64,000 nucleotides of DNA from Bacteroidota bacterium (GTDB lineage Bacteria; Bacteroidota; Ignavibacteria; UBA10030; CAVZMI01), in the NCBI GenBank assembly GCA_050011775.1, contig JBEKIL010000003.1, forward strand, positions 230,853 through 294,852. The letters are read 5' to 3'. Shown in pieces: positions 36,064 to 56,274 of the stretch; positions within the stretch are counted from its first letter, which is position 1; every line of letters begins with the position of its first letter. The position numbers and the translations under genes are program-made. The notes under the pieces were generated by a model that was not told the origin of the DNA, searched no databases, and saw only the letters and a program-made list of their open reading frames with translations.

Positions 36064-38862
36064 ATGTACAGTCTTGCCGCCTTCATTCATATTGTCGTGC
36101 TTTTAGTGATTACGTGGTATTCCTTACGATCATACGATGAATGCTGGCTCCATAAGAGTTTCGCCGTACTGATTCTTATTTGGTCAAATTTAGTTATTAC
36201 GGCTTTGTTTCTGAGCCTCTTCTCAGCACTCGGTTCTCTACCCCTTTATTTCTTCGTCTCAATTATTCTTGCGATTGTAACGGCTCTCGTAGTGCCGCAT
36301 TTTACAAGATCAATAGCTGCCAATTATTCCTGTACGATAATGCAGGGGAAAAGTGCCCGGTCATGGTTAATGACAACGTCATTGATTCTTCTGCTCATTT
36401 GCTTTATTTGTTCAAGTGTCATTTGCTTGTTATACTATCCAAACAACTGGGATACTGAAGCGTATCGCTTTGGACGGGTATTTCTTTATTTAGGACAGGG
36501 AAACTTGAACCATATCCCGTGTGGAGATTCAAGACTCTCGATGTATCCATTTAACGGCACACTTGCCTATCTGTACTTTGCAGAATATGCACTCGATGGA
36601 AGATGGTTCAATTTTCTCAGCCTGATATTTTGGAGTTTCGGTGTTGCCGGTTGTTTTGCATTCGCACGCGATTTGGGTGCTTCGAAAACAGGTTCATTGA
36701 TTGCGGCGGCAATTTTTGGGACAACCCCGATCGTTGCAACCGTGGCGGCTTCGACAAACGACGAAATTATCGCAGCCGTACCGCTTCTTCTTGGGCTCAT
36801 ATTTCTTTTTCGCTGGTGGAAGTCCCGGAATCGATTCGATTCGATCGTCAGCGGGCTTGCCCTGGGCTTGTGTGCAGGAACAAAACTACACATCGTTTTC
36901 TTCATACCGATCATAGCTGTAGTGGCAATAATTCTCCTTCTTATCCTTATCCGAAAGAAGATGGTTCGTACCGTCATCCGTGAGCGCGGTAAAGGTGCAT
37001 TGGTCATCATAATAATCGCTATCTTCCTTTTTGTACCGTTTATGATTGTCAACATATCACAGGGAGGTTTTACATTTTTCAGTTCCAAATGGATCAATCC
37101 TATGTTAAATAAGCCCTTCGATGCAGGTATGGCACTCAAAAACACAACGCTTTTTTCATCTCAATTATTTCTCAGCCCGATTCCCGATCTGATTATTTCA
37201 CCGGATGACGACTTTAAACGTAAGTGTTATCAAAATTTTAATGACTTTTTCAACAAATTGGTTTTTACTGATGTGAATAACGATAAGAATTATTCATTCG
37301 CTCATTATCACTTCAGGGGTGTCGCAAATCCGGATGGTTTTTACTCGTTTGAACAAACCTTCTGGCTTGGTTTCATTCCTTTCCTTTTTGTATACGGACT
37401 GATCACCCTTTATCGAAACAGGAAATATGTTACTTTTGTGCCTTTTCTTCTTATAATATTTTTCTTCTCATGGCACTTTGCCCGCAGTATGCTGACAAAA
37501 TATATTGAAACGACGGGAGTATATTATGTATATCCATTTACAATTGCGGCAATGGCGATTGCAGTGATCTGGGATCTTCGTGAACATCAGGGAAGAATTG
37601 GTCGAAAAATCACTCTGATTGGTTTTTCCATAATTATTCTCAGTAATGGAATATTTCTTTCGAACTTGTTCCTATATAATATTCAAAGAAATTTAAGTCG
37701 GCTTTATCAATCACATTTTATTCCGCAGCAGAAATATATGTCAAGAGAAGTCGTCAAGGCGATGCAGGAATCACCAAAAGTGAATTTTATTTATACAAGG
37801 AGGGAATTTCCTTACTTCCAGTTTGCAGCTCGAAGTCCGGAAACACGTTTCATTACAGAGACACAACTTGATCCCCAAAAAGTCGATATCCTGAATCTTA
37901 TGATTTATCCTTTCAGAAGCGAGTACGGTCACATACCTATTAAAGTACCCCATCCTCAAAATAATTTATTGACACTCATGGGCTATCTGGAAAATGTTTA
38001 CGGAAGAGAAGGAATTTTTGGATTTGGTGGAAATAGCCGTGAGTATAATACCTATGGAACGGACTATAACCTTTTACATTATAAACCAATTTATGATGAA
38101 AACTCCTCGATCCCTAAAGCACTGGTTTTCTCTCCAAAGTTGGAGGTGCCGCTCGATTCTTCATACGAATTTCGATTGCTGGTTGTAGAGCCTTCCGGTT
38201 TTTATCTTAATCTGACAGAATGGATCGGGAAGGAGCGTATGGGGATGCGAATTCCTCTTCCTTTGATTCCTGAGGGGTCGAAGTTGAATGTACAAACGCG
38301 GCTTCGGTCTGCGCCTCTGGATATTACTGAAACTCTGTTTCCGCTTGATCGAGGTATTGAGTGGGATATATCGCAAAAAAGTATAAAGCCGACTGAGTTA
38401 GATATCGGTAAAAGGAATATACTGGAGGGCGTGGTCTTTCAATGTGATTTGATCGAAAATGTCGTACAGAATGGTTTCTCAGTGAATGGAATGCGGGAAC
38501 CGGAGGGCCCGTATGAAAAATGGCAATTGCCACGTGTCCGCTGGGCGAACAATCCTGTTGTAACGCTTACGGTTTCGGATGAACTGTCAAGGTCGATAAA
38601 TACTCTTTCATTGATATTCAGCATTAGGCCGCAAATCCGGCCGTCGTCTTCATTTTCCGTTCGTCTCAATAATAAGATCATAAAGAAGTATGAGCTGAAT
38701 GATCCGACCACATGGGTTGATGATGTAATCGAATTGCATCTTTTGAAAGGATTGAATAAGATTGAACTCATCAGCCGGAGTAAATCCAAGGGGGCTGCAC
38801 CATCGGAAAATCTTCACATGTTATTCCGTTCTCTTATGGTAACGGGTAAAAGAAAACACTAG
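36064..38862 (+). CDS. large membrane protein, paralog A: N-terminal polytopic GT-C-like domain plus ~400-aa C-terminal soluble domain
   Basis: 932 aa. Shares 'PNNWDTEAY', 'YLGQG', 'PFN', 'ND..IAAVPLL.G', 'GL.AG.KL' and C-terminal 'PEGPYEKWQLPRVRWAN...IRPQIRP' with the ORFs at 48226 and 53548. Confidence 0.5.
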   Translation: MYSLAAFIHIVVLLVITWYSLRSYDECWLHKSFAVLILIWSNLVITALFLSLFSALGSLPLYFFVSIILAIVTALVVPHFTRSIAANYSCTIMQGKSARSWLMTTSLILLLICFICSSVICLLYYPNNWDTEAYRFGRVFLYLGQGNLNHIPCGDSRLSMYPFNGTLAYLYFAEYALDGRWFNFLSLIFWSFGVAGCFAFARDLGASKTGSLIAAAIFGTTPIVATVAASTNDEIIAAVPLLLGLIFLFRWWKSRNRFDSIVSGLALGLCAGTKLHIVFFIPIIAVVAIILLLILIRKKMVRTVIRERGKGALVIIIIAIFLFVPFMIVNISQGGFTFFSSKWINPMLNKPFDAGMALKNTTLFSSQLFLSPIPDLIISPDDDFKRKCYQNFNDFFNKLVFTDVNNDKNYSFAHYHFRGVANPDGFYSFEQTFWLGFIPFLFVYGLITLYRNRKYVTFVPFLLIIFFFSWHFARSMLTKYIETTGVYYVYPFTIAAMAIAVIWDLREHQGRIGRKITLIGFSIIILSNGIFLSNLFLYNIQRNLSRLYQSHFIPQQKYMSREVVKAMQESPKVNFIYTRREFPYFQFAARSPETRFITETQLDPQKVDILNLMIYPFRSEYGHIPIKVPHPQNNLLTLMGYLENVYGREGIFGFGGNSREYNTYGTDYNLLHYKPIYDENSSIPKALVFSPKLEVPLDSSYEFRLLVVEPSGFYLNLTEWIGKERMGMRIPLPLIPEGSKLNVQTRLRSAPLDITETLFPLDRGIEWDISQKSIKPTELDIGKRNILEGVVFQCDLIENVVQNGFSVNGMREPEGPYEKWQLPRVRWANNPVVTLTVSDELSRSINTLSLIFSIRPQIRPSSSFSVRLNNKIIKKYELNDPTTWVDDVIELHLLKGLNKIELISRSKSKGAAPSENLHMLFRSLMVTGKRKH

Positions 38863-38936
38863 AATTATTATTTCATAACAAAAAAGGATTAATTATATTT
38901 ATAATGTCGTTAAATGATGAATATCAAAATTGATGA

Positions 38937-39665
38937 TTGCATATGAATATTCCGACACTATTTCACATCACGCATTGGAAAGCTGGATCGCAATGGGTTG
39001 CAAAAGTACTCAAGGAGCTTTTCCCTGATGAAATCATTCCACCAAGAATTGCGGCTGCCCAGGTTCTCCAGATGCCGATACAAGAACACAAAATCTATTT
39101 GTGTGTCTATATTGCGAAAGGACAATGGGACCGAATCCAACTTCCAAAAGAGACACGACGGTTTCTTATTATTCGCGATCTCCGGGATACACTGGTCTCG
39201 GCATATTTCTCAATGCGATATAGCCATCCCATCATGATAAATCAAATGGAAGAATGGCGTAATTTTTTAAGGACAAATAGTTTGCGTGATGGCATGGTGT
39301 ATTTAATGGAAAATTGGCTTCCGGACAGCGCGAATATACAGCGATCCTGGTTGAAAGCAGGGGAGAAATTTTTCCGTTTTGAAGATATTTTAAAAAGCGA
39401 TATTTTTTACTTCGAGAAAATACTTATTGACCATTGTCAGTTACCCATTGAAAAAGCAATGCTCCGGGATGTAGTTCAACGAAATAGATTCATCACGTTA
39501 AGTAAAGGCCGGAATCCGGGTGCAGAAGATCGGTTGTCGCATTATCGAAAAGGACTTCCGGGCGATTGGCAGAACTATTTCAGTGAAGAAACAAAAAAGG
39601 AATTCAAGAAACGTTTCAATGATGTTCTCAATCTGACCGGGTATGTGGACAACGATACCTGGTGA
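38937..39665 (+). CDS. putative sulfotransferase (Sulfotransfer_1-like)
   Basis: 'HITHWKAGSQWV' resembles 5'-PSB 'PKSGTTWL'; 'RDLRDTLVSAYF' resembles 3'-PB 'R.P.D..VS.Y'; 242 aa. Confidence 0.55.
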   Translation: MHMNIPTLFHITHWKAGSQWVAKVLKELFPDEIIPPRIAAAQVLQMPIQEHKIYLCVYIAKGQWDRIQLPKETRRFLIIRDLRDTLVSAYFSMRYSHPIMINQMEEWRNFLRTNSLRDGMVYLMENWLPDSANIQRSWLKAGEKFFRFEDILKSDIFYFEKILIDHCQLPIEKAMLRDVVQRNRFITLSKGRNPGAEDRLSHYRKGLPGDWQNYFSEETKKEFKKRFNDVLNLTGYVDNDTW

Positions 39666-39693
39666 AAAGTATTTCGATAAAGATAATGGGAAG

Positions 39694-40488
39694 ATGACTA
39701 AACTATTCGTATGTTTCCGTGAGTTATGGAATAGGCGCGAATTATTATTTTCGCTTACAAAGCGGGATATTAAATCGCGATATCAACAGACTTTTTTTGG
39801 AATGGGCTGGTCTTTGTTTCAGCCGGTAATGCAGGCTGTAGTCTATACAGTTGCCTTCTCGTTGATACTTAAAGTGCCGATCCGCGAAGGAATACCGTAC
39901 ATGAATTTTGTGTTCTGTAATCTCACACTCTGGACCTATTTTGCATCAACAACCCTCAGCGCAATGAACAGCATACGTATGAATTCCGCTTTGATAACAC
40001 GGGTAGCGTTCCCGCGTGAAATCATTCCTTTTTCGACCATTCTGTCAGGACTATTCGATTTCATAATTATGTTTATCGTCCTGGTTATTCTAAACGCTTT
40101 TGTCGGCTTTTATCCAAATATCCGATTTCTGTATTTGCCCACGATTATCTTAATTGAAATTCTTTTCATTCTGAATATTTCATTAGTATTAAGTGTGATT
40201 TCGATTGTACGTCGTGATATTACCCATGTCGTGAATTATTTTATTATGCTTTATATGTTTATATCGCCGGTCTTTTTTCCGTTCTCGGCACTACCGGCTG
40301 AAATACAGCGATATTATTTTCTTAATCCGATGGGGACTCTTCTTGAAGGATTTAAGAATATTATATTTCTTGACAAAGAACCCCGCTGGTTTGCATTGAT
40401 GATGGTGATCATAATACTGATCGTTCTTTTTTTCCCCTGTTATATTTTTTTCAAAAAAGCTGAACGTTCCTTCACGGATGTACTATGA
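39694..40488 (+). CDS. wzm: ABC-2 type polysaccharide export permease (Wzm family), pair 2
   Basis: 'KRDIKSRYQQTFFGMGWSLFQPVMQAVVYTVAFSLIL', 6 TM. ATG 39694 avoids overlap with the upstream gene. Confidence 0.8.
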   Translation: MTKLFVCFRELWNRRELLFSLTKRDIKSRYQQTFFGMGWSLFQPVMQAVVYTVAFSLILKVPIREGIPYMNFVFCNLTLWTYFASTTLSAMNSIRMNSALITRVAFPREIIPFSTILSGLFDFIIMFIVLVILNAFVGFYPNIRFLYLPTIILIEILFILNISLVLSVISIVRRDITHVVNYFIMLYMFISPVFFPFSALPAEIQRYYFLNPMGTLLEGFKNIIFLDKEPRWFALMMVIIILIVLFFPCYIFFKKAERSFTDVL

Positions 40489-41885
40489 TTGCACTCCGTT
40501 TCAATAATGTCACGAAAATTTATGACCTGCAGGCGGGTCGGGACACTTTTCTCACGACTCTCAGGTTCACTCTGGGCAATGTTAAGCGGAATGATTTCTT
40601 CCATGCCGTTCGTGATATAAATATTGAAATAAAAAAAGGCGAAGCAGTCGGTATCATCGGACGTAATGGAGCGGGGAAAAGTACACTGCTGAAACTTGCG
40701 GTCGGGATTACCTATCCGACATATGGATCGGTTGAAGTGAACGGTTCGATTGCCGCACTCATAGGACTTGGGGCAGGATTCAATCCCGATTTCACAGGTC
40801 GGGAAAATATTTTCCTTAATGCTTCGCTATTGGGCGTTCCAAGGAAGAGAGTGGAGGAACGTTTTTCCGAGATTGTCGCCTTTGCAGAATTAGAAGATTT
40901 TATCGATGTTCCGGTTAAGCGTTACTCTTCGGGGATGTACGCGCGGCTCGGATTTGCCATCGCGACTCACGTCGATGCCGATATCATTGTCATCGATGAA
41001 GTACTGGCTGTAGGAGACATATATTTTCAACAAAAATGCTTTTTATTTTTAGAATCGCTTCTTCAAAAAGGGAAAACTCTTCTATTTGTGAGTCATGATG
41101 TAGGCAGTGTGCGTGAACTTTGCAATTCTGTAATATTGCTTGAGAAGGGCGTGAATATATTTCATGGAGATCCAAGAGAAGGTGTAAATAGATACCTGCT
41201 ATTACAACAGAAAAAGGATACTGCAAAGGATTCCGAGAATGAAATTCGCGTGGAATCGAAGACTAGTACTGCATCAAATGCGGATATTACGGTTGATAAT
41301 AAATCGCAGGAAGGGAAGAGGAAATTCCTGCCGCGCCAATGGTCCGACATCGATGCACTGGATCTTTCTTCCTCTGCTGTTCTTATTGGTGAGAGAGATG
41401 TTCATTGGAAGGGCGTCGCGATCTATGATAAGGACGGAAGTCGCTGCAATTCTTTTTCCATGGGGGATGAAGCGTGGTTCTATTATGAGTTTGAGGTTCT
41501 GCGCGATATACTTACTCCGTTTGCCGGCGTTGCGATTTATGATAGGAAAGGAATTCTTGTTCACGGAAAGACGACATATCAGCATGGAATACAGCCGTGC
41601 CGTACAGTTGGAAAAAACGCGACGATCCGGGTTATTCAATCGATAAAGTTTCCATTGTCACCCGATACGTATACTTTTGAGCTATGGCTCAGCATGATGG
41701 AGCCGGAGACTCATGAACAGCTTCAACATCTTACAGCAGAACAAATTCAGGCAGGTGTTACCAAACTGATGCATATAAGCAGAGCAGGTTCGATCATTAT
41801 TACCCCTAATCCGAACAATATTGCTATCAATAATTTTGGTATAGTCGACTTGCCGGGGAGTGGAGATCTGACAATACTCCCCTGA
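40485..41885 (+). CDS. wzt: polysaccharide ABC exporter ATP-binding protein with C-terminal Wzt_C-like carbohydrate-binding domain, pair 2
   Basis: Walker A 'GIIGRNGAGKSTLLKL', signature 'YSSGMYARLGFAIAT', 'IIVIDEVLAVGD'. Extra ~200-aa C-terminal beta-rich domain ('HWKGVAIYDKDG...VAIYDRKGILVHG'). Confidence 0.85.
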   Translation: MIALRFNNVTKIYDLQAGRDTFLTTLRFTLGNVKRNDFFHAVRDINIEIKKGEAVGIIGRNGAGKSTLLKLAVGITYPTYGSVEVNGSIAALIGLGAGFNPDFTGRENIFLNASLLGVPRKRVEERFSEIVAFAELEDFIDVPVKRYSSGMYARLGFAIATHVDADIIVIDEVLAVGDIYFQQKCFLFLESLLQKGKTLLFVSHDVGSVRELCNSVILLEKGVNIFHGDPREGVNRYLLLQQKKDTAKDSENEIRVESKTSTASNADITVDNKSQEGKRKFLPRQWSDIDALDLSSSAVLIGERDVHWKGVAIYDKDGSRCNSFSMGDEAWFYYEFEVLRDILTPFAGVAIYDRKGILVHGKTTYQHGIQPCRTVGKNATIRVIQSIKFPLSPDTYTFELWLSMMEPETHEQLQHLTAEQIQAGVTKLMHISRAGSIIITPNPNNIAINNFGIVDLPGSGDLTILP

Positions 41886-41933: not shown

Positions 41934-44900
41934 ATGATCACGAAAGCCGGAAAAAATCTTGCCTATATTTATTCAACTCCCCGCTCTGGCTCGACATTGC
42001 TTGCGGCGATGCTCGGCGGTCACGATGACGTCTATGTCCCTCCCGAACCATGGTTTCTACTTCTGCTTCATTCTCTTCTCTCTTCCGATGATGCGATTGT
42101 TGCACATTATGACGAAAATCTGGCACGCCGCGCATTTCGGGAATTGTCTCCGGAGAATATCATCACAGAAGCCTCGCAAAACTATGCATTGACGGTATAT
42201 AATAGTCTGTTGGAGAAAAACAAAAAAAAATATTTTGTCGATAAAACTCCCCGATATTACCATGTCCTTGAATGGATCGATGCGCTATTCCCTGAAGCCA
42301 AAAAAATACTCTTAGTCCGAAATCCACTCGATGTCTTTGCATCATATAAAGATGTGTGGGGAATCGAAGTAGAGGAAATGATCGGTGAACAGCTCTCTCC
42401 ATTTTCATTCGATGCCACGATAGCATATTTCAGATTTCAGGATTTTTATAAGCGATCGCATACAAATATGATCCGGATTTCCTATGAGAATCTTGTGATT
42501 GATCCCCATACCGTGATGCACGGGGTATGCGGTTTTTTAGGATTGGCATTTAACGAGAGGATGATATCCTATGGAGAGAATAAAGAACTATTGACACGGT
42601 ACGCAAATTCCAGCATGGGCGATCGAAAGGTGCTTTCCGAAATAACTCCGCATCGAAAATCATGCGGAAAATGGAAAACAATCCTGACCCCCTTAGAAAC
42701 TCAGAAGATTGTGACGACGCTTGGGACAAGGATATTCGAAGAGAACGGTTATAAGACCGAATTACAGGAAGCTCTGTCATTTGCTTCGCTGCAATATGAG
42801 AAGGTCGACCGCGAAGGAAGAAAGGAAGAACTCTTTAAACAGTATCAGACCTATGTCGAGACGCGGCTTTCATCATCTGCAGCTCTTTCCAATGTGGCTC
42901 TCACAAGGAAGAATGAAGAGCTCTTAAAATATATAACTACAATAGAGAAGGATCGGCAGGATCGACTCGAGGCAATCCTACGTTATCAGGAAAAACTGGA
43001 TAACTCTCATAATGCAATTGAGCAAAAGGAAATACGAAATCAACAACTTCTTGAGGAATCACTCAGGATTCAGGATCAACTGGTAGACTCTCGTAATGCA
43101 ATTAAGCAAAAAGAAGTACGAATTCGACAACTTCTGGAGGAATCACGTGGGTTTCAGAATCAACTGGCAGACTCTCGTGATGCAATTGGGCAAAAAGAAA
43201 TACGAATTCAACAACTTATGGCGGGAACGTACGGGTTTCAACATCAACTGACGGAACTCCGGGATGTCATAGCACAAATCGAAAAAGACAGACAGGCCAG
43301 ACTCGATTCGATACTCTATTACCAAAAAGAACTGGCGGAAGTACAGCGGAGGAATCAGGAACTTATCGATACGATTTCTTCGATTGAAAACGACAGGCGG
43401 GCCAGACTTGAGTCGATACTCTATTACCAAACAGTATTGTCGGATTTACAACATCGGTACGATGTGATCGAAAAAGATCATGCAAATCTTTTGATGTTAG
43501 TCGAAACATTGAATGGTCATATTGCCGAACTCGGGACATTGGAAACATCGTTACGCCGGTTCATTGAGTTGTCGTTACGCAGCATCGGTCTCTATGAATT
43601 TATTTTACGCCACCGAAAAAAGCTTAACCGGGTTTTTCTGTTCGTATTGCACGCGGGGGCCGGATTAGCTTCTGTTATCCGCAAATTCCATCGCAAAAGG
43701 GAGCTTGGTGTAGTGAAAGCAGACACCGCTCCTTTACAAAAACAGACTCTTAAAGAAACATTAAACTCACCCGAGGTCAATGCTTATGTCAATTCACGGT
43801 TAATTCAGGGTGATCTGGAAGACAGTGTAATACACCATTTCCTCGATAATAATTCTTCGTTTTCATCCGTAATCTGTCTCATGCCGGACCCAAATGATCT
43901 TCAATTACTGATTTTTCTTAAAGAACTCGGGAAATCTGTATTTGTTCTTCATTCTCCATCCGAAAATTTAAGTCTCATTAAACCGAATATTTCTTTTACA
44001 GCATGCATCGCCGATGAATGGTTCATGAAATATGGACGGTTGGAACTTTCAAAATATGATGTTCTTTTCATAGGAAAGAATTGTTCAGGTTCGTATTTCC
44101 GACTATTAAAAAATTATGTATCACCTCGAACAGCGATAATTCTTCATAATACCAGTTTTTCGGAAGAGTTATTTTTACTTGAGGGTAGGATTAAAGTGAC
44201 AATCGGCAGCTTTGTTTCTCTGTCTCCTTGCTCCGATTCAAAGGTATTATTCAAGGTATGCGAAGAACGCCGAACAATCGATAATGCACAATGGCCGTGG
44301 AAGCAGTTCAAGTCTGAAATCCCATCGAACATGCCCTCCGGCAGGCCCTGGCCGAGAATATCGGTCGTTACGGCCACACTCAATCAGGGCGATTTCCTTG
44401 AAGAGACAATTCGCTCGGTGCTGCTGCAACGTTATCCGAACCTTGAGTACATTCTCCTCGATGGGGGTTCCACCGATACAACACCGGAGATTCTCAACCG
44501 GTATAAAAATGAGTTCGCAGTGTGTCTAAGTCAAAAGGATAAAGGTCAGGCCGATGCGTTGAACAGGGGTTTCAATCATGCAACCGGAGAAATTCTTGCA
44601 TGGCTGAATAGCGACGACCGATATCTTCCCAACACATTTCTTGATGTTGCGCTGGCATATGATTTGTATGCCTGTGATATGGTTGCAGGGGGATGTGCTC
44701 TTGTCAATGATAACGAAGCAATTCCCTGGAGTGTACATCACACTTTATTACCTCTGGGGGAAAAAGTCCGGCTTCCACTCGATAATCTTCTCGATATCGA
44801 TGGTTCCTGGCAAAAAGGCGATTTCTTTTATCAACCGGAGGTGTTCTGGAGCAGGAACATCTGGGAAAAATCCGGGAGACGAATTGATAGTACTCTCCAT

Positions 44901-47207: not shown

Positions 47208-48178
47208 TGGATATCAATTCATGGTTAAAGCAATGGCGGGAGAAGGCAGGGATTATTTATGTCTCCCAACCACACCGTTTTGCTCATGACGAAACCAAGT
47301 ATGATGAACAATATAAGATCGATCCGAAGGATATACAGGCGGGGAAGGGGTTGGTCTCGTTGTTGCGGCGCTGTGATGCTTCATTCACGGGCCCTGCGTT
47401 GGAAATCGGTTGCGGTACCGGCCGTTTATCATTGGGTCTGGTCCAGGAAAATGTGTACCCCGTAACACTTCTGACCGATCCGTCGGTTAAATTCCTCAAA
47501 ATTGTGCAGGAGAAGATGACACGGTTATCCATAAATCAGAATTCAATACGATATGCGGTTCTGTCCGCCGAAGAAATCGGCGTATTACCAGAAAATACAT
47601 TTTCGCTAATTGCACTGCGCTCGACATTACATCATGTCCTCGATGTATCGAAATTTATTCATGAAGCCGCCCGGGCATTGTTGCCCGGGGGAATATTGAC
47701 GTTCGAGGAGCCATGCCGCGAAGGATTTATAATAATGGGGATGATGGCGCAATTCATGATTCCGATGTTAGAGGCAAAAGGAATCGGTATTTCCGGTAAG
47801 CATCAGTCACAGATAAAGACGTTTGTTGATGTGATGAAATTTTATTCCCGTTACGATGTCGATAAAACATCGAGTGAGGATAAACATGTCTTTCGAGTCG
47901 ATGACGTAATGAAACAGGGTCAATCAGCCGGATTGAAAGTGGAGTTTCTGCCGAACCGTGCGTTCGATGAGTTTATTTATCAGCCCGTGTCTCCTCACGA
48001 TAGAAAATTTTTTAATGTTTTTTTTAAAAAATACCTCTCTTACTGTATGTCATTTGATAACGAGCTGATAGATGTTCTTGATAAACACTTCTTTGAATAT
48101 TTTTCATTTATAGAAGATATATCGGAGGGAGATAACGCCCCATATATGCATGGTGTTTTTATTTGCATAAAATTATAA
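47207..48178 (+). CDS. class I SAM-dependent methyltransferase
   Basis: 'ALEIGCGTGRLSLGL', 'LIALRSTLHHV', 'GGILTFEEP'. Confidence 0.75.
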   Translation: MDINSWLKQWREKAGIIYVSQPHRFAHDETKYDEQYKIDPKDIQAGKGLVSLLRRCDASFTGPALEIGCGTGRLSLGLVQENVYPVTLLTDPSVKFLKIVQEKMTRLSINQNSIRYAVLSAEEIGVLPENTFSLIALRSTLHHVLDVSKFIHEAARALLPGGILTFEEPCREGFIIMGMMAQFMIPMLEAKGIGISGKHQSQIKTFVDVMKFYSRYDVDKTSSEDKHVFRVDDVMKQGQSAGLKVEFLPNRAFDEFIYQPVSPHDRKFFNVFFKKYLSYCMSFDNELIDVLDKHFFEYFSFIEDISEGDNAPYMHGVFICIKL

Positions 48179-48225
48179 ACAACAACACCATGAATATTTT
48201 TGGTCTCATAATTGATCCATACCCC

Positions 48226-50964
48226 ATGATAATATTCTTGATTCATCTTTTTCTTATTTCCTTTGTTTCATACAAGATCACACAGCGGTTTCTGCCGGAT
48301 GTGCTCGAGAGGGTACTGGCCGCTTTCATCCTCGTGTGGGCGAATCTTGTCGTTACCGCCCTTCTTCTTTCTTGTTTTATTCTCTTAGGAAACCGTTATT
48401 TCTATTTTAGTCTCTCGGTTCTGATGACGCTCGTAGGATATGGAATTGTATATAAGAAGAATCCATATCCATCAATAGAGTGGAAAAGTATCATACGACA
48501 ATTCTTCCAGTATTCGTATTCACTCTGGGATATTTTTCTATTTCTGACATTTCTATTCTTTATATGCGTTAACATCGTGATTGCATTTTCCTTCAGACCA
48601 AATGGTTGGGATTCATTGGCTTATCACCTCCCACGCATTTATTTTTATTTGGGGCAGGGGCATCTGGGCCATTTTACAACCGGTGATTTCCGGATGATTT
48701 TCTTTCCATTTAATTATGAATTATTACAACTGCTGTGTGTGACATACGGGCAGCCGGACTGGCTGTTGAATTATACAAATCTCTTTTGCTGGATATTTGC
48801 CGGAATTGCACTTTTTGTCATATGTCGTAGAATTGGCCTGAAAACCGGTACAGCACTTCTTTCGAGCTGGATTGGATTAACTGCGACACTGGTACTTGCT
48901 TATGCAACAATAACATATAATGATCTTCCAACAGCAGTACCGCTTCTCATCGGTGTTGTATTTGCACTTCGATGGTTTGATGATCAACATTGGAAGAACG
49001 TGGTGTTCGCTGGAATTGCGTTTGGACTCTCGGCAGGGAGTAAGCTTACAATATTTTTTTTCTGGCCGATGGGGATCATCATTCCTGGATTCATACTTTA
49101 TCGCATTATTAAAAAGAAGATCACGCTACAACAGGCCTTTCAAGGAGTACGGCATTGGATTGTCGGTGCTCTCATCGCATTTATTCTCACGGCACCGTTT
49201 ATGATGATAAACTACTACTATGCGAAGCAATTGATAACACCAGGAAGCGATTTCATGTTAAATAGACCGTTTAATTGGCGAAGCCCGGGGAAAACCCTTT
49301 ATACCTATGGCCTGCAATTGGTATTTGATCCTTTTCAAAGAGTGGCGATCGATATGCCCGGGAAAAACGTCACGGCAGGAGCGAGAAATTTTTTAGAGCC
49401 GCGAGTCCGGAAATATCTTCTTCCGGATTGGGACCTTAATTACACAGCTTCGAATTTATCTATTTTGTATTCAGGTTTGAGCGAAGATTTTGTTTGGTTC
49501 GGATTTGCCGGTCCTCTTGTTGTGCTTTCAGTGCTCTGGACATTGGTGTCTCGACCAACCCGAAAATCAAATGTTACCTGGTTAGGTCTCGCGAGTATGA
49601 TCTGGATCATTACGTATTGCATTCAGTTTAAGTGGTATTACGGCATTCAACGCTATTTTATTGGGGCATTCCTTCTAGGTATTCCTTGTACCGGTTATTT
49701 TATTGAGACCTTGATTGAGCGATCTTCCATCATTAAATATGTTATCAAGTTTTGTATCGTATCTATCGTTCTGACGTCGGCACTCTTTGGTTACATTTAC
49801 GTAATGAATAAGGCACTACTACTTTTAGTTGATCCGGCATATTACAGCGAGTCACGACAACGCTCACCCCGAATACGCCAGGAGTTATCGCATCAGAAAA
49901 ATATAAATATTGTATTCGGTCAGGAATACCTCAATTTTAGCCAGGAGCATTTCGGCGAAAAATTATATCATCTTATGGATATAGGCAGAGCGCAAACGTT
50001 CCGATTGGATACGGTGACAAGGAAAGGTTGGTATAACATATATTCATGTCCGTCAGCATCGAAAGAAATTCTATATTCAAACAGACCTTCGACATCGTCG
50101 TATGTAACGATTGCTATCCCGGATAAGAAAACACCCGGAGTGGAGTTCCTTGACTCTATATACTTTATTGGGTCATTATATTTTCATTACTATGGGTATG
50201 ACGATGGGATTAAAGCTGCGGATTCATTGAAGAATAACAATTTAATTATGATCAAAGTGGTATTTGATGGAATTACCGGAGACGGCTTTTCGAAACTTCG
50301 ATTGAGTCTGAATGGTTGTCGTGATGCTGACAGCTTTACAACTGAAGTATATTATAAAGATATCATCGGGAATAGAACACTTGGATGCACATTTACAAAA
50401 GATTCGATACAGTCACTGGTCGTCCCCCAATTTTTTACCGGCCTCTACGTTCTTGTCCATGAAAAGCAGACCGGCCTCTTGAAGGGAGAGGGAGAAATAA
50501 AGGTGAGAGAATTTAATTCCGGACAGACTACAACATCGGGTACTATAACTAAAGAAGATCTTATTAAAGTGGCATTGCCCCACAGAGTATTGCTTGATGG
50601 TTTTCGCCTACCGGAAGGTCCGTATCCCCAATGGGATTTGCCCGCTGTACGTTGGGCGAATAGATCGAGGGTGCGATTAGCTTTTTATAGTCAGGAGGAT
50701 GCACCCGGCAAACCAATATTGCTTTCAATGAGTTTCAGACCTCATATACGCCAGACGGCGTTGATGGTTGTAAGCTTTAACGGGAAAAAGCTCAAAGAGT
50801 ACACACTAACGAGTGGAAATTCTTGGAGGAATGACGAATTGCAGCTCACTCCAAAGGGTGGGGCAAATACTCTTGAGTTCGAATTTCCATTAATGAAAAA
50901 TGAAAAACCCTTGCCGGACTCACTCTTTATGCTCTTTAAAACGCTTTCTGTTAGTGGTTTTTAG
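48226..50964 (+). CDS. large membrane protein, paralog B (GT-C-like N-domain plus C-terminal soluble domain)
   Basis: 'MIIFLIHLFLISFVSYKITQRFLPDVLERVLAAFILVWANLVVTALLLSCF' is nearly identical in pattern to the 53548 N-terminus. C-terminal 'PEGPYPQWDLPAVRWAN...EKPLPDSLFMLFKTLSVSGF'. Start 48226 chosen by alignment with paralog C; the listed ORF start is 48163. Confidence 0.5.
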   Translation: MIIFLIHLFLISFVSYKITQRFLPDVLERVLAAFILVWANLVVTALLLSCFILLGNRYFYFSLSVLMTLVGYGIVYKKNPYPSIEWKSIIRQFFQYSYSLWDIFLFLTFLFFICVNIVIAFSFRPNGWDSLAYHLPRIYFYLGQGHLGHFTTGDFRMIFFPFNYELLQLLCVTYGQPDWLLNYTNLFCWIFAGIALFVICRRIGLKTGTALLSSWIGLTATLVLAYATITYNDLPTAVPLLIGVVFALRWFDDQHWKNVVFAGIAFGLSAGSKLTIFFFWPMGIIIPGFILYRIIKKKITLQQAFQGVRHWIVGALIAFILTAPFMMINYYYAKQLITPGSDFMLNRPFNWRSPGKTLYTYGLQLVFDPFQRVAIDMPGKNVTAGARNFLEPRVRKYLLPDWDLNYTASNLSILYSGLSEDFVWFGFAGPLVVLSVLWTLVSRPTRKSNVTWLGLASMIWIITYCIQFKWYYGIQRYFIGAFLLGIPCTGYFIETLIERSSIIKYVIKFCIVSIVLTSALFGYIYVMNKALLLLVDPAYYSESRQRSPRIRQELSHQKNINIVFGQEYLNFSQEHFGEKLYHLMDIGRAQTFRLDTVTRKGWYNIYSCPSASKEILYSNRPSTSSYVTIAIPDKKTPGVEFLDSIYFIGSLYFHYYGYDDGIKAADSLKNNNLIMIKVVFDGITGDGFSKLRLSLNGCRDADSFTTEVYYKDIIGNRTLGCTFTKDSIQSLVVPQFFTGLYVLVHEKQTGLLKGEGEIKVREFNSGQTTTSGTITKEDLIKVALPHRVLLDGFRLPEGPYPQWDLPAVRWANRSRVRLAFYSQEDAPGKPILLSMSFRPHIRQTALMVVSFNGKKLKEYTLTSGNSWRNDELQLTPKGGANTLEFEFPLMKNEKPLPDSLFMLFKTLSVSGF

Positions 50965-51073: not shown

Positions 51074-51952
51074 ATGGTGATAAGCATAATACCGTTCTAT
51101 AAGCAAATCCCTTTCACTCGAATAAAAATTGCTATTGCAAAAATACTTTATCGACTGGTGAAAATCTTTTATCATTCCGATCAACAGATTATTGTGAGGA
51201 ACGGTCTCAACTATCAGGTTGATCTAAGCGAGGGGATTGATCTTTCGATATTTCTATTTGGAGATTTTCAGAAATGGGTTCATGATTGCAAAAATGTACG
51301 CATTCCCCCTGACGGTGTTATACTTGACGTCGGGGCGAACATCGGGACAATGAGTCTTCAATTAGCAGTAAGAGTCCCTCACGGTCTCGTGTATGCGTTT
51401 GAACCGACCGATTATGCATTTGCGAAACTCATTCGGAATATTTCTTTGAATCCTGATATAGCAGGGAGGATTCGTCCATTTCAGATTTTTATATCCGATC
51501 ATGATCGTGCAGTTCATACTATCAAGGCGTATTCAAGCTGGAAAATTGATGGGTCGGGGATTTCCGTACATCCCCTCCACGGCGGCTCAATTAAACCGGC
51601 TGCTTCAATTCCTTCGGTTACTATTGATCATTTCTGTGAAATTAACAACATCTACAGAATCGATTTTATCAAAATTGACACTGATGGGCATGAATATCAA
51701 GTCTTAAAGGGTGCAGAAAAGACGTTAAAAAACTATCATCCATATATCGTTTTCGAAATCGGTTTCTATCTCATGAAAGAATCGGGAGTAAATTTTGAAG
51801 AATATTACAATTACTTATCAGCTTTAAACTATTATTTAGTAAATAGTAAAAACGATCAAATTGTTTCAAAGGAAAATTACCATCGTCAGATCCCATACAA
51901 TTCAACGACGGATCTTATCGCTATTCCGACAGTTCGTGGTTCTGGAACATGA
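51074..51952 (+). CDS. FkbM-family methyltransferase
   Basis: 'VILDVGANIGTMSLQLA', 'YAFEPTDYAFAKL', 'IDFIKIDTDGHEYQVLKGA'. Confidence 0.8.
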   Translation: MVISIIPFYKQIPFTRIKIAIAKILYRLVKIFYHSDQQIIVRNGLNYQVDLSEGIDLSIFLFGDFQKWVHDCKNVRIPPDGVILDVGANIGTMSLQLAVRVPHGLVYAFEPTDYAFAKLIRNISLNPDIAGRIRPFQIFISDHDRAVHTIKAYSSWKIDGSGISVHPLHGGSIKPAASIPSVTIDHFCEINNIYRIDFIKIDTDGHEYQVLKGAEKTLKNYHPYIVFEIGFYLMKESGVNFEEYYNYLSALNYYLVNSKNDQIVSKENYHRQIPYNSTTDLIAIPTVRGSGT

Positions 51953-51983: not shown

Positions 51984-53477
51984 GTGATTTTAAGTGAAGG
52001 AATATCATTGGTTTTTACGATAACCAGAGACCAGCCAGTCGAGGCCATGGTATTATCTAAAAGAAAACAATCGATCCGGGAGCTATCGGATGCATTGGCA
52101 CCGATGCGTGATCGATGGATTGCGCGCAACAGGTATTTTCATGAGTCGGATTTTCGATACATGCGATTCCTTATACCCGAAGAATCGAATGTTCTCGATC
52201 TGGGATGCAGTACAGGACGGCTTTTGTCGGAATTGCGGCCGAAAAGGGGAGTCGGTATCGACATCAGCGACCGGATGATTAAAATTGCACAACGAAATTA
52301 TCCGGCATACGAATTTTATCAGGGTGACGTTGAAGATAAAACGTTCATAGAAACGATCCAGGGGCCGTTTGATTATATCATACTCTCAGATACGATCGGG
52401 TCTCTCGATGACTGTGAATCGACTCTTCAGCAGCTGCACCCCTTATGCACGCCGGAAACACGAATTGTAATTTCGTATTATTCCGCTCTCTGGGAACCCA
52501 TTCTCGTATTTGGAGAATTGGTGAAGTTGAGAATGCGCCAGGCGAAACAGAATTGGTTATCGACAGACGATATCATGAATATCCTTTTTCTGGCGGGGTA
52601 CGAGACTATTAAGAGGGAATGGAGGCAATTGATACCCAGACGCCTTTTAGGATTAGGTTCGCTTATTAACCGCTATTTGGCTCCTCTCGCAATAATCCGC
52701 CGGCTCTGTCTGCGGAATTATATCGTGGCCCGTCCGACAACAGGAGCTATTGATAGATTACACTCGGCCTCGATCATTATACCATGTCGTAATGAGAAAG
52801 GGAATATCGAGACAACTGTTCAACGCATCCCGCGTTTTTGTGGTAGTTGTGAAATCATTTTTGTTGAAGGACACAGCGATGATGGTACTCTTGACGAGAT
52901 TTATAGGATCATCGACAAATATATGGAGAAAGAAATTAGAGTTTTCGTGCAGGATGGAAAAGGGAAGGGAGATGCAGTTCGGAAGGGATGTGCAAATGCA
53001 AGGGGAGATATCCTCATTATCCTCGATGCCGATTTAACAGTACCGCCGGAGGCGCTGCCAAAATTTTATGACGCGATTATCTCCAGGAAGGGAGAGTTCG
53101 TCAACGGGACGCGGCTTGTGTATCCAATCGAGAAGGATTCGATGCGATGGTTGAATTTTATTGCCAACAGGATGTTTTCCTTGATGTTTAGCTGGCTTTT
53201 AAACCAGCGATTTACCGATACACTGTGTGGTTCAAAAGCATTACCAAGAATTTATTATAATAAGATTGCACAGAATCGAAGTTATTTTGGCGAATTCGAT
53301 CCATTCGGGGACTTTGACCTCATCTTTGGAGCGGCTAAGCTTAATATGAAGATTGTCGAGATACCTATCAAGTATGCTCAACGAACATATGGCGAGACCC
53401 AGATATCGCGGTTTCGCCATGGATGGCTCTTGCTTCGAATGGTTGCGTTTGCATTGAAAAAATTTAAAATGTTTTAA
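51984..53477 (+). CDS. bifunctional class I SAM methyltransferase (N-terminal) plus GT2 DPM1-like glycosyltransferase (C-terminal)
   Basis: N-terminal 'VLDLGCSTGRLLSEL...VGIDISDRMIKIAQ'. C-terminal 'ASIIIPCRNEKGNIETTVQRIP', 'GDILIILDADLTVPPEALPKF'. GTG 51984; alternative ATG 52047. Confidence 0.75.
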   Translation: MILSEGISLVFTITRDQPVEAMVLSKRKQSIRELSDALAPMRDRWIARNRYFHESDFRYMRFLIPEESNVLDLGCSTGRLLSELRPKRGVGIDISDRMIKIAQRNYPAYEFYQGDVEDKTFIETIQGPFDYIILSDTIGSLDDCESTLQQLHPLCTPETRIVISYYSALWEPILVFGELVKLRMRQAKQNWLSTDDIMNILFLAGYETIKREWRQLIPRRLLGLGSLINRYLAPLAIIRRLCLRNYIVARPTTGAIDRLHSASIIIPCRNEKGNIETTVQRIPRFCGSCEIIFVEGHSDDGTLDEIYRIIDKYMEKEIRVFVQDGKGKGDAVRKGCANARGDILIILDADLTVPPEALPKFYDAIISRKGEFVNGTRLVYPIEKDSMRWLNFIANRMFSLMFSWLLNQRFTDTLCGSKALPRIYYNKIAQNRSYFGEFDPFGDFDLIFGAAKLNMKIVEIPIKYAQRTYGETQISRFRHGWLLLRMVAFALKKFKMF

Positions 53478-53547
53478 TAAAAGCATCAGTATAATAAAGA
53501 CAATAGTGTTTTTAAAAACGTCAATGAATTAAATTGGATCGTGTGCC

Positions 53548-56274
53548 ATGGTAATTTTTATTATTCATCTTCTTTTTGTTTCCTTTTTCTCGTACAAAAT
53601 CGCGCAGCGATTTGTACCGGAAGTCCTCGAGAGAATACTGGCAGCATACCTCATCGTCTGGACGAATCTCGTCGTTACTGCCCTTTTGCTTTCATGCTTT
53701 TCTCTCCTGGGAGACCGCCAACTTTATTTTCGCTTTTCGGTACTGGCGACGCTTTTGGTTTTTGGGATTGTGTATAAAAAGAATCCATATCCATCCCTTG
53801 ATTTGAGAAATAATGTAGTTAAATTCTTCCGGCGCTCCTTTTCTCTCTGGGAAACTTTTCTCCTTGTAACAATTCTTTTCTTTCTCTGTGCCAATATCGT
53901 GATCGTATTTTCTTTCAGTCCCAACAACTACGATTCATTGACTTATCACCTTCCACGCATTCACTTTTATCTTTCACAAGGTCATCTGGGTCATTTTACG
54001 ACTATTAATACCCGTATGACATTTTTCCCATTTAATTATCAGCTGCTTCAATTGTTCTGCATAACATACGGCCAGCCCGATTGGTTGATCAACTTTCCGA
54101 ACCTACTTTCGTGGGTTCTTGCAGGGCTTGCACTCTTTGTGTTATGCAGAAGGGTCGGATTATCAGTATCGACCGCATTTCTTTCAAGCTGGATTGGATT
54201 GACATCGACGCAGGTGCTCGCGCAGGCAACAACGACGACCGTCGATCTCCCTGTCGCGGTTCCCCTGCTTATTGGCGTAATCTTTACAATTCGATGGCTG
54301 AACGAACGAAAATTGAAAAATATCGTGTTTGCGGGTCTTGCCTTCGGGTTATCAGCCGGCAGCAAGATGACAATATTTTTTTACTGGCCGGTCGTATTTG
54401 CCATAGCCGGTTTCATCATCTTCCGTATTTTTCAAAAGAAAATTTCTCTACAGCAAGCCTTTCAGGGAATCAGGCACTGGTTAGTTGCCGGACTCATTGC
54501 AGTCAGCCTTTCAGCACCATTCTTGATGATAAATTATTATTATTCGAAGCAATTGATGACATCGGAATATGATTTCCTTCTCAATAAGCCGTTCAATTGG
54601 AAGTGTGCTGTTCAGACAATATATACCTACAGTTTACAATTGGCTGTTGAACCCTTGCAGCGTACGGCGATTGACATACCGGGGATAAACATCAGCGGAG
54701 CAGCGAGAAGTTATTTGGAACCGCGAGTCCGGAAATATTTTCTTCCTGCATGGAACCCAAATTACGCGGTATCTGATTTATATGTCTTCCCCCCGGATTT
54801 AAATGAGGATCATGTCTGGTTCGGATTTGCAGGCCCATGTATCATGCTCTCCGTGCTCATGGTAATCGTGCTACGTTCGCCCCGTAAAACAGTCATTTTC
54901 TGGCTGGGTCTTGCCAGTATAATGTGGCTTCTCACATATTGTACTCAAAACAAATGGTCACTCTATACTCAACGCTATTTCGTGGGGGCATTTCTCCTGA
55001 GCATTCCGTGTGCCGGCTTTTTCATTGAGAACCTGACAAATCGAATTTCTGTTTTAAGGCATTTCGTCAATATTGGTATTGTATTTCTTGTGACAACTTC
55101 GGCGCTCTTTGGCTACATCTATGTTATGACGAACACTACACGGGCTCTTCCGCTTATATTTGATCCGGCACAATTGCGCGGATTCCCGCAACGCCCACGT
55201 CAGATACTCGAGACATTATCACAATACAAAAAAATTAATATAGTCTATGCCGGAAAGGAACACGGGAACGAACGTTTATATTGTCTCATGAACACGGGGA
55301 GATCGCAGGAATTCCGGATTGACACGACGACAAGGCCGGATTGGTATAATGTCTATTCGCATTGGTCTCCATCGAAGGAAGCCCTCTATGTAAATATACC
55401 GTCCACATCATCGTATCTTACTCTTACTATCCCGGATAAAAAAACACCCGGGTTGAATTATCTCGGTTCAATTGGCACCGGACTGACCGGCTATGATTAT
55501 TATGGATATGATGCGACAAGCAACGCGACGGATTCGCTAAAACTAAGCAATTTAATCATGATGACAGCGGTGTTTGATGGATTTGCGGACAACAGGCTGT
55601 CAGATCTCCAATTACACCTCAACGGTATTCGAGAAGCCGATAGCCTTTATGTAAAAATATATTCTGACGATGGAATGGGGAATAGAACAGATCTAGCGAC
55701 TTTTTCAAAGGATGCAATGCAGCATGTTGTTGCCCCCAAAACATATAAGTATCTACTTATTATGGTGCATGAAAAATTGACTCACAATATGGTAGCGGAG
55801 GGACAATTTCTGGTAAAAAATTATGAAGGAGAAAAAGGCATTGCCTCAAACACGACTCAGACCGTCGATCTGATAGCCGAGCGGAAATCCGTTAAGGTAT
55901 CGCTCGATGGTTTTAAAAATCCTGAAGGACCATACCCGCAATGGAACTTGCCTCTGGTGCGGTGGGCAAATAAATCAATCGCACAATTTACCTTCAAGAA
56001 TGATATAATATCATCTGCCCGTCCCGTCATACTCTCGTTGAGTTTCCGGCCGCAGATACGGCCGGCAGCCACCATGGTTGTTCAATTCAATGATAAGATA
56101 ATGAAGACATATCAACTTACAAATACCACTGCATGGAATAATGACGAGTTAAAATTATACCCTATAAAAGGTATGAATACAATCGAGTTCTCATTTCCTA
56201 TGATGAAGGGGGAGAAACCCTTGCCGGATTCTCTCTATATGCTTTTTAAAACACTTTCTTTTAGCGGTCTGTAG
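53548..56274 (+). CDS. large membrane protein, paralog C (GT-C-like N-domain plus C-terminal soluble domain)
   Basis: 908 aa. 'PNNYDSLTYHLPRIHFYLSQGHLGHFTT', 'PFNYQLLQ', 'GLSAGSKMTIFFYWP'. C-terminal 'PEGPYPQWNLPLVRWAN...EKPLPDSLYMLFKTLSFSGL'. Confidence 0.5.
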   Translation: MVIFIIHLLFVSFFSYKIAQRFVPEVLERILAAYLIVWTNLVVTALLLSCFSLLGDRQLYFRFSVLATLLVFGIVYKKNPYPSLDLRNNVVKFFRRSFSLWETFLLVTILFFLCANIVIVFSFSPNNYDSLTYHLPRIHFYLSQGHLGHFTTINTRMTFFPFNYQLLQLFCITYGQPDWLINFPNLLSWVLAGLALFVLCRRVGLSVSTAFLSSWIGLTSTQVLAQATTTTVDLPVAVPLLIGVIFTIRWLNERKLKNIVFAGLAFGLSAGSKMTIFFYWPVVFAIAGFIIFRIFQKKISLQQAFQGIRHWLVAGLIAVSLSAPFLMINYYYSKQLMTSEYDFLLNKPFNWKCAVQTIYTYSLQLAVEPLQRTAIDIPGINISGAARSYLEPRVRKYFLPAWNPNYAVSDLYVFPPDLNEDHVWFGFAGPCIMLSVLMVIVLRSPRKTVIFWLGLASIMWLLTYCTQNKWSLYTQRYFVGAFLLSIPCAGFFIENLTNRISVLRHFVNIGIVFLVTTSALFGYIYVMTNTTRALPLIFDPAQLRGFPQRPRQILETLSQYKKINIVYAGKEHGNERLYCLMNTGRSQEFRIDTTTRPDWYNVYSHWSPSKEALYVNIPSTSSYLTLTIPDKKTPGLNYLGSIGTGLTGYDYYGYDATSNATDSLKLSNLIMMTAVFDGFADNRLSDLQLHLNGIREADSLYVKIYSDDGMGNRTDLATFSKDAMQHVVAPKTYKYLLIMVHEKLTHNMVAEGQFLVKNYEGEKGIASNTTQTVDLIAERKSVKVSLDGFKNPEGPYPQWNLPLVRWANKSIAQFTFKNDIISSARPVILSLSFRPQIRPAATMVVQFNDKIMKTYQLTNTTAWNNDELKLYPIKGMNTIEFSFPMMKGEKPLPDSLYMLFKTLSFSGL

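Follow-up and report, generated by a model that had tools for sequence, protein, structure and literature searches.

Three paralogs in a large polysaccharide locus

The present analysis concerns three paralogous membrane proteins, A, B and C, encoded in a stretch of 64,000 nucleotides from a Bacteroidota bacterium, namely positions 230,853 to 294,852 of contig JBEKIL010000003.1 in assembly GCA_050011775.1, the whole of which we call the window. All open reading frames (ORFs) of the window to which a family could be assigned lie on the + strand and form a very large polysaccharide locus, with genes for the synthesis of 3'-phosphoadenosine 5'-phosphosulfate, four sulfotransferase domains, two Wzm/Wzt pairs, many GT2 and GT4 glycosyltransferases, many S-adenosylmethionine (SAM) methyltransferases and a membrane acyltransferase of the AT3 family. 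Coordinates are collected in Table 1, and genes other than A, B and C are referred to by their first nucleotide.

As an earlier sequence-only reading of this DNA had proposed, A, B and C are three full-length paralogs, all intact and on the + strand. The start of B can be placed in more than one way: its ORF opens at TTG 48163, from which the NCBI call gives 933 amino acids (aa), the public gene calls being 924 aa and 933 aa, and ATG 48226 aligns with Met1 of C. Over their full length, B and C are 58% identical (E = 0) and A and C 25% identical (E 4e-75), a similarity at the level of sequence that is far beyond chance. B and C are therefore close and A more diverged, as had been noticed, and a neighbour-joining tree places B and C together in a lineage-specific clade, with A as a distant outgroup. 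The shared motifs listed earlier can be kept only in part. Namely, PN.(W/Y)D(S/T) and the C-terminal PEGPY..W.LP.VRWAN are present in A, B and C, but several others belong to B and C only: A has the variants PFNG, GLCAGTKL and AAPSENLHMLFRSLMVTG, while C itself reads YLSQG and has VD in place of ND. The exact sequences of the A/B/C region are public, from a metagenome-assembled genome labelled Bacteroidota, and a contig of an Ignavibacteriota metagenome-assembled genome (L001, L035) bears a locus that is 93-100% identical.

Table 1. Coordinates of the paralogs, their regions and the neighbouring features in the window (GT, glycosyltransferase; TM, transmembrane; CBM, carbohydrate-binding module; AF2, AlphaFold2).
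Feature	Position	Strand	Remarks
Sulfate activation: adenosine 5'-phosphosulfate (APS) kinase	2387-2923		
Sulfate activation: CysD-like	2956-3837		
Sulfate activation: CysN/C-like	4262-6067		
Fourth GT-C-fold gene	31137-32771 (listed as ORF 30834-32771)	+	544 aa; invariant D23-D24 after TM1; just upstream of GT2 32990
Third DPM1/AglJ-like GT2	32990-34144	+	384 aa; C-terminal third has several hydrophobic segments; lies 2 kb before A
Paralog A	36064-38862	+	932 aa; ORF and translation
D129 codon of A	36448-36450	+	
Terminal EGPY domain of A	38458-38859	+	follows GT-C-fold membrane domain (~aa 1-540) and divergent middle
Sulfotransferase after A	38937-39665	+	Pfam Sulfotransfer_1
Wzm (ABC-2 permease) and Wzt (ATPase, C-terminal Wzt_C)	39643-41885	+	Pfam; predicted exporter of lipid-linked polymer
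Sulfotransferase, coiled coil and GT2	41934-45086	+	Pfam, NCBIfam; predicted cytoplasmic assembly
GT4	45086-46327	+	Pfam/NCBIfam
Methyltransf_24	46344-47207	+	Pfam/NCBIfam
SAM methyltransferase	47207-48178	+	Pfam/NCBIfam
Paralog B	48190-50964	+	924 aa from ATG 48190; 912 aa from ATG 48226
Terminal domain of B	50560-50961	+	B has GT-C domain and CBM-like C-terminal region
FkbM-type methyltransferase after B	51074-51952	+	Pfam Methyltransf_21, 75.6 bits
Methyltransferase and DPM1/ArnC-like GT2 fusion	51984-53477	+	497 aa; no TM helix; between B and C
Paralog C	53548-56274	+	908 aa; copy chosen for structure modelling
N-terminal extension of C (aa 1-99)	53548-53844	+	three TM helices and short helix placed cytoplasmic; AF2, positive-inside
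GT-C core of C (aa 100-530)	53845-55137	+	AF2, fold matches, invariant columns
D129 codon of C	53932-53934	+	
C-terminal region of C (aa 540-908)	55165-56271	+	predicted periplasmic
EGPY domain of C (aa 776-908)	55873-56271	+	motif EGPYPQWxLPxVRWA
Acyl_transf_3 (AT3) membrane O-acyltransferase	56306-57466	+	directly after C; Pfam 100.9 bits
SAM methyltransferase	57476-58225	+	between AT3 and DPM-like GT2; Pfam
DPM1/GtrB/AglJ-like GT2	58283-59236	+	317 aa; two C-terminal TM helices; Pfam GT2; predicted polyprenyl-phosphate hexose synthase
Soluble GT2	59451-60368	+	305 aa; Pfam

Predicted fold, conserved residues and family

The AF2 model of C, built from an alignment of 39 sequences, is confident, with a predicted local distance difference test score (pLDDT) of 86.7 and a predicted template modelling score of 0.78; its residues 1-530 are helical and membrane-embedded, and residues 560-908 are beta-rich. 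In a Foldseek search against the PDB, the membrane part matches GT-C enzymes only, namely EmbA/B, Pmt4, STT3, PglB, ArnT and AftD, all with prob 1.0, the best structural matches being Pmt4 and ArnT. By superposition of the modelled membrane domain, A, B and C are predicted members of the GT-C-fold superfamily, and the structure model, which had been suggested as a check, agrees with the GT-C-type domain assigned from sequence. The earlier count of 12-13 TM helices, on the other hand, has to be replaced: hydrophobic segments, AF2 helices and positive-inside analysis point to 14, and A likewise has 14 hydrophobic segments. Applied to the modelled helices, the positive-inside rule would put the N-terminus of C outside and its C-terminal region in the periplasm. 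A three-helix N-terminal extension, in which W38, L46, L48 and S64 are invariant, precedes the canonical GT-C module; the TM helix at residues 100-122 then runs into a loop (aa 128-173) with D129 at its start and R137, Y141, R156 and N163 further along, K273 lies in a short turn and E420, also invariant, in a large loop (aa 324-427), all three of these segments being placed periplasmic.

The residues D129, Y133, R137, Y141, R156, N163, K273 and E420 are invariant in 39 of the 39 aligned sequences, A, B and C included, and A retains every invariant column of the alignment in spite of its divergence. Because these loop and core residues are kept in all three, A, B and C all look catalytically competent. 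Five of them (D129, R137, R156, K273 and E420) would fall, by the positive-inside rule, within loops on the periplasmic side. By analogy with GT-C enzymes of solved structure, D129 is the probable catalytic base, and the conserved Arg and Lys residues would bind phosphate. The conserved acidic residue that had been noticed in the first loop is D129, and the loop is the first of the conserved module to be predicted periplasmic.

The C-terminal region had been described as a conserved periplasmic domain of about 400 aa. While its periplasmic placement agrees with our topology, the soluble region measures approximately 370 aa and is not conserved throughout. In C it consists of an alpha/beta part (~555-665), a variable beta module (~666-775) and a terminal beta-sandwich, and a fold search with the model finds resemblance to CBM35, CBM22, CBM36, CBM29 and CBM51. 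In other words, the C-terminal beta-sandwiches are predicted to have a CBM-like fold, superposable on solved CBMs, which, together with the inferred periplasmic location, upholds the likeness to the Emb/AftD-type architecture drawn from the sequence. The middle module is the most variable part (40% identity between B and C, 16% with other homologs, 12% with A), and because of this the paralogs probably differ in acceptor site or linkage and not in chemistry. The last ~130 residues, in contrast, are the best-conserved region between A and C, at 36% identity vs 30% in the catalytic core.

This terminal part, which we call the EGPY domain, is covered by no model of Pfam or of NCBIfam. G794, P795, Y796, P802, W806, R834, R838 and W863 are invariant in the EGPY domain of C, and Y796, W806, R834, R838 and W863 are compatible with predicted sugar binding. 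A profile search returned 168 clusters among 1.84 billion representative proteins, with the match nearly always at the C-terminus of proteins of 620-1030 aa. Ten of these proteins were scanned with Pfam: four had PMT_2 (one of them also PMT, and only one above the gathering score), five had no match and one had a sulfatase domain. The EGPY domain is, in short, rare and almost always ends GT-C-like proteins. Proteobacterial EGPY proteins of ~670 aa come without the N-terminal extension, and their GT-C core is still homologous (hhalign probability 96%). The sole non-GT-C architecture seen is that of protein P0303, with an EGPY-type domain at residues 160-279 of 866 aa and a sulfatase/alkaline-phosphatase-type C-terminal part.

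To what extent is the family unassigned, as had been claimed? No characterised family is matched, and in this sense the claim stands. That said, C passes the gathering score of Pfam PMT_2 (PF13231, 26.1 bits) with 31.2 bits, B and A scoring 22.8 and 21.7, and NCBI names C 'glycosyltransferase family 39 protein', with A and B 'hypothetical'; PF13231 is also precomputed on most homologs. The 'GT39' label is a generic domain-match name and not a tested assignment. Scanned against NCBIfam, A, B and C produced nothing above noise, and the family profile of 39 sequences matched no PDB sequence in a meaningful way. Confident matches to a characterised family, with YfhO and PMT as examples, had been named as what would speak against the earlier reading: at E <= 1, YfhO (PF09586) matches none of the three paralogs, and neither do PMT (PF02366) and MIR. 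Some homologs carry weak precomputed PF02366 matches. For the Emb and Aft domains there is no Pfam match and no PDB sequence match by the family profile, the likeness being one of fold and architecture. A literature search on GT-C, GT39, Opitutaceae and O-antigen brought up analogues and no characterised family member. Homologs that match B and C in full length (~950 aa) are frequent among Opitutia (Verrucomicrobiota), and others come from Candidatus Nitrotoga and Nitrospiraceae; the few named ones are called 'glycosyltransferase family 39 protein', 'ArnT-like' or 'hypothetical'. A falls into another subfamily, of ~800 aa (e.g. in Bradyrhizobium and Xanthobacteraceae), whose members are 'hypothetical' save for one 'ArnT-like'. 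The family of A, B and C is a separate and so far unstudied branch within the ArnT/PMT-like superfamily; its terminal domain is new, and the enzyme class is well known.

These names and matches raise the question of whether the acceptor might be something other than a polysaccharide, i.e., a protein, as in PMT-like O-glycosylation, or lipid A and core, as with ArnT- or RgtA-D-like enzymes. Pmt4 and ArnT are, after all, the best structural matches, PMT_2 is the only Pfam match, and NCBI labels C and many homologs GT39. However, GT39 PMTs have an Asp-Glu (DE) motif in loop 1, whereas loop 1 of A, B and C reads PNN(Y/W)D(S/T), with no Glu next to the Asp and hence no DE motif. Differences from ArnT (GT83) and the GT39 PMTs go further: A, B and C have no MIR domain, no PF02366 match and no NCBIfam ArnT equivalog match, they sit among polysaccharide assembly genes and not in an arnBCADEF-type operon or a Ser/Thr-rich protein context, and they carry the N-terminal extension and a 370-aa tail whose CBM-like modules suit a glycan acceptor. 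What is more, the genes are co-inherited with a polymerase/ABC-transporter polysaccharide cassette in four phyla, as described below. On balance, we consider a non-polysaccharide acceptor improbable.

Predicted lipid-sugar synthases and a cassette shared across phyla

Three GT2 proteins of the type that synthesizes polyprenyl-phosphate sugars are encoded in the window together with the GT-C genes. AglJ/dolichyl-phosphate-hexose transferase is the nearest NCBIfam model for each of them, and the best PDB matches across them are DPMS, ArnC and GtrB. In particular, 58283 scores 219.6 bits with AglJ, under the cut-off of 325, and has Pyrococcus DPMS 5mlz as its best PDB match (E 2e-12); the fusion 51984 matches 5mlz (E 1.7e-13), ArnC and GtrB; and 32990 matches 5mlz (E 8e-12) and ArnC. 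In the case of the fusion, there is the possibility that the lipid-linked sugar donor is methylated. Similar fusions are found near the cassette described below in four Opitutia loci (L010, L011, L025, L027).

The fourth GT-C-fold gene of the window, 31137, has no Pfam or NCBIfam match, and its homologs are all 'hypothetical', one being fused to GtrA. Its AF2 model (pLDDT 92.9) has ArnT, EmbB, STT3 and AglB as best Foldseek matches, and the product is predicted from this model to represent a second unannotated GT-C family in the window, unrelated to A/B/C, which probably pairs with 32990. Both 31137 (ORF 30834) and 7977 were considered as further paralogs; hhalign against the family profile shows no relationship, and they are therefore not counted as such.

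To follow these genes into other organisms, the window proteins were compared by tblastn with 33 related loci. The recurring order is one or more large GT2 polymerase-like proteins, a methyltransferase, GT4, Methyltransf_24, GT-C, AT3, a DPM-like GT2 and a methyltransferase, and Pfam confirms it in the cultured Oleiharenicola lentus. An AT3 ortholog directly follows the GT-C gene or genes in 32 of the 33 loci, and an ortholog of 58283, at 41-63% identity, lies downstream of GT-C in 32 as well. Upstream of GT-C stand the GT4 (30/33), the Methyltransf_24 (28/33) and the methyltransferase (24/33). The soluble GT2 59451 has matches in 30 loci, mostly onto GT2 domains of the large polymerase-like proteins and not to a separate ortholog. 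In the A-type loci, from Bradyrhizobium and a metagenome contig, relatives of the GT2 41934 and the GT4 45086 are directly upstream of GT-C, with Wzm/Wzt nearby, and the Bradyrhizobium locus has a DPM-like GT2, 49% identical to 58283, 4 kb upstream of GT-C. In Bradyrhizobium sp. CCBAU 51745 (L059), an A-type GT-C lies beside an MBOAT/AlgX pair, as in alginate-type periplasmic O-acetylation, with no AT3 there; O-acylation thus still accompanies the GT-C through a different enzyme family. Since the GT-C genes are conserved with these partners from locus to locus, polymerase-type GT2/GT4, GT-C, lipid-sugar synthase and O-acylation form a co-inherited unit, which extends across four phyla. The donor of A, B and C is, in this indirect way, supported as a polyprenyl-phosphate sugar: DPMS/GtrB/ArnC-like GT2s adjoin the family here and in 32 of the 33 loci.

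The same data bear on an en bloc transfer, in which A, B and C, like oligosaccharyltransferases or ligases, would move a finished polymer linked to undecaprenyl diphosphate to its final acceptor. The closest structures include AglB, STT3 and PglB, polymers of the ABC (ATP-binding cassette) transporter route need ligation, and no WaaL-type (Wzy_C) gene was detected among the window proteins scanned. Nevertheless, the near-obligate link to a synthase of monophosphate sugars and the multiple paralogs per cluster argue against it, as does the lack of any Pfam or NCBIfam STT3, PglB or AglB match in A, B and C, the WWDYG motif not having been searched for. We hold this alternative to be highly improbable.

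In the relatives, GT-C genes are often multiplied. Two tandem copies occur in L010, L011, L017, L018, L020 and L024 and three in L012 (Opitutia), in each case beside one AT3 and one DPM-like GT2, and often another divergent GT-C copy lies some kb away. Because tandem copies are found in Opitutia loci, the multiplicity of GT-C genes is a trait of the family and not a peculiarity of the window. Tandem genes beside a single synthase recall the tandem arrangement of GT-C genes in embCAB, and one could argue that A, B and C are periplasmic polymerising or elongating enzymes of the EmbA/B/C, AftD or MptA/B kind, building and branching a homopolymer on an exported primer from one donor instead of attaching side-chain residues singly. 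The mycobacterial EmbA, EmbB, EmbC and AftD are likewise GT-Cs of ~1000 aa with extra N-terminal TM helices, the three Emb proteins are tandem paralogs with a common lipid-phosphate sugar donor, and in our search EmbA/B aligned over ~1000 columns. CBM-like C-terminal modules are present in Emb and AftD too (PMC11127046). However, a complete cytoplasmic polymerase/exporter set is present in the window, and we therefore regard this alternative as unlikely.

Concerning the immediate neighbours, Pfam confirms the sets reported earlier: a sulfotransferase after A, an FkbM methyltransferase and the methyltransferase-GT2 fusion after B, and AT3, a methyltransferase and the 317-aa GT2 after C. It was proposed on this basis that the paralogs stand for three parallel periplasmic branching or modification modules, or for alternative variants. 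While the neighbour sets do differ, B, C and their neighbours make up one cassette, which other phyla conserve as well, the pairing is not one-to-one and a fourth GT-C gene is present, so that the proposal survives only in part. In the sulfo- and methyltransferases beside the paralogs, no TM or signal feature is predicted, and presumably they modify the backbone in the cytoplasm and take no part in the periplasmic step. The 1050-aa product of 41934 combines an N-terminal NoeE-like sulfotransferase, a coiled coil of ~250 aa (SMC-type matches) and a C-terminal GT2, an architecture that we take to be like that of the WbdD/WbbB terminator-ruler-polymerase proteins of ABC-transporter O-antigen pathways. 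This resemblance suggests that sulfation may be a chain-terminating signal, read by the Wzt_C of 40485.

Some further features of the window should be mentioned. The first Wzm/Wzt pair (23396-24943, +) has a Wzt of 240 aa with no carbohydrate-binding domain; a housekeeping-type NAD synthase (21708-23360, +) precedes it amid glycan genes, and the window may comprise two adjacent polysaccharide loci. PF05635 '23S rRNA-intervening sequence protein' genes (1989-2345 and 3834-4229, +) are interleaved with the sulfate-activation genes. In the 740-bp gap before A, there are an 87-aa ORF with 'PNHVHMV' (35466-35729) and a perfect hairpin with a 10-bp stem (35783-35805); the stretch is reminiscent of the HUH motif of an IS200/RAYT-type transposase, but the idea finds no support, with no Pfam match and a single chance-level PDB match (E 0.96). 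A 41-aa ORF (19889-20014, +), lying in a gap between two glycosyltransferase genes, looks like the Rossmann motif with which GDP-mannose 4,6-dehydratase begins and may be a gene remnant. A promoter/terminator scan around the paralogs showed no excess over shuffled expectation, and no RNA gene was detected in the window with either Rfam or a tRNA scan.

Probable decoration of an exported polysaccharide

Taking all of this together, we consider it reasonably probable that A, B and C are periplasm-facing GT-C glycosyltransferases, which decorate an ABC-exported polysaccharide after export, using polyprenyl-phosphate sugars. We observe the paralogy of A, B and C, their predicted fold, their conserved residues and a gene neighbourhood that is kept across phyla, and it is from these that we infer topology, donor, acceptor, the roles of residues and the periplasmic location of the step. 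The pathway context, with a Wzm/Wzt pair bearing Wzt_C, polymerase-type GT2 and GT4 and AT3, speaks in favour. In such a pathway, the C-terminal GT2 domain of 41934 and the GT4 45086 would build a backbone on undecaprenyl diphosphate, on the cytoplasmic side of the membrane. The backbone would be methylated and sulfated in the cytoplasm and then exported by the Wzm/Wzt pair at 39643-41885. The GT2s 58283, 51984 and 32990 would load a monosaccharide onto polyprenyl phosphate, and the lipid-linked sugar would cross to the periplasmic leaflet through some flippase. Each GT-C paralog would then grip the polymer by its CBM-like modules and move the sugar onto a defined backbone hydroxyl, with D129 acting as base and conserved Arg and Lys residues holding the phosphate, while the AT3 protein would attach O-acyl groups.

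Systems of this general kind are known. The GT136 protein ORF12 of Citrobacter youngae is a GT-C with a CBM (PMC11127046), and, as in the GtrA/GtrB/GtrC systems of Salmonella and Shigella phages, its synthase gene lies beside the GT-C gene in an O-polysaccharide-type cluster. The likeness to these systems includes a predicted catalytic Asp at the start of the first periplasmic loop and, for ORF12, compared by its published architecture only, a C-terminal beta-sandwich CBM-like domain on the GT-C. That said, the generic PMT_2 is the only model that is matched at the level of sequence. A, B and C are larger (~910-930 aa vs ~650 or 450-500), with three extra N-terminal TM helices and a multi-module C-terminal region ending in the EGPY domain, they have no adjoining flippase gene, and their GT-C copies are multiplied in tandem. 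What is more, the donor here is probably a hexose, given the AglJ/DPMS-like synthase, and not a pentofuranose derived from phosphoribosyl pyrophosphate as in the ORF12 system. A second parallel comes from Streptococcus mutans, in which the SccN/SccM and SccP/SccQ pairs act on an ABC-exported rhamnan (PMC11754754). Here, as with GacI/GacL of S. pyogenes, the backbone is a cytoplasmic product, export is by an ABC transporter and several synthase/GT-C genes of a single locus attach side-chain sugars outside the cytoplasm, at differing positions (PMC11754754); in S. mutans, too, the flippase has not been identified (PMC11754754). The Scc and Gac systems differ in that they concern a Gram-positive wall polysaccharide and unrelated GT-C enzymes, and in that one-to-one pairing has been shown experimentally there.

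Several points weigh against the post-export decoration that we favour. No member of the family has been studied, so that donor and acceptor are deduced, and similarity of fold does not distinguish a glycan, lipid or protein acceptor. The arrangement of the C-terminal domains around the active site comes from an unvalidated structure model. As far as the donor pathway is concerned, no GtrA, Wzx or MATE Pfam match was found among the window proteins scanned, and there is no small membrane ORF in the three gaps inspected, at 19.9-20.3 kb, at 35.3-36.1 kb and after 63.1 kb; the sole flippase-like gene is LPG_synthase_TM (12077-13081, +), more than 20 kb from the paralogs. Pairing, furthermore, is not one-to-one: there are four GT-C-fold genes against three synthases in the window and up to three tandem GT-C genes per synthase in relatives, for which reason one synthase per paralog was given up as a firm claim. 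A has no directly adjoining synthase, the nearest being 32990, and in L060, an A-type locus, none of the genes within 8 kb is DPM-like. Near LPG_synthase_TM there are also two polytopic proteins with no family assignment, 7977-9656 (559 aa) and 10914-12119 (401 aa), both on the + strand.

One can also take the decoration reading further, in a speculative form that we think unlikely to hold as a whole. Namely, the EGPY-tailed GT-Cs would be a new CAZy-level family, whose tandem members share one synthase and, Emb-like, jointly give an ABC-exported polymer a periplasmic decoration that is oligomeric or branched, in diderms (Ignavibacteriota/Bacteroidota, Opitutia, Nitrotoga, Bradyrhizobium). Some donors might be modified beforehand on the lipid, e.g. 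methylated by 51984, and the terminal domain would be a new CBM family for the shared GT2/GT4 backbone.

No current concept is challenged by these findings, as the class of mechanism is well established. For annotation, the gain would concern three genes of which two are now 'hypothetical' and the third is 'GT39' by generic domain match, and the cassette is a bioinformatic marker for a shared surface polysaccharide, probably methylated and acylated. If post-export decoration is indeed what A, B and C carry out, there would be a new GT-C family and a new terminal domain of carbohydrate-binding type, neither with a Pfam or NCBIfam model, and lipid-sugar-dependent extracytoplasmic glycan decoration would reach little-studied environmental groups, namely Ignavibacteriota/Bacteroidota, Verrucomicrobiota (Opitutia), Nitrotoga and Bradyrhizobium.

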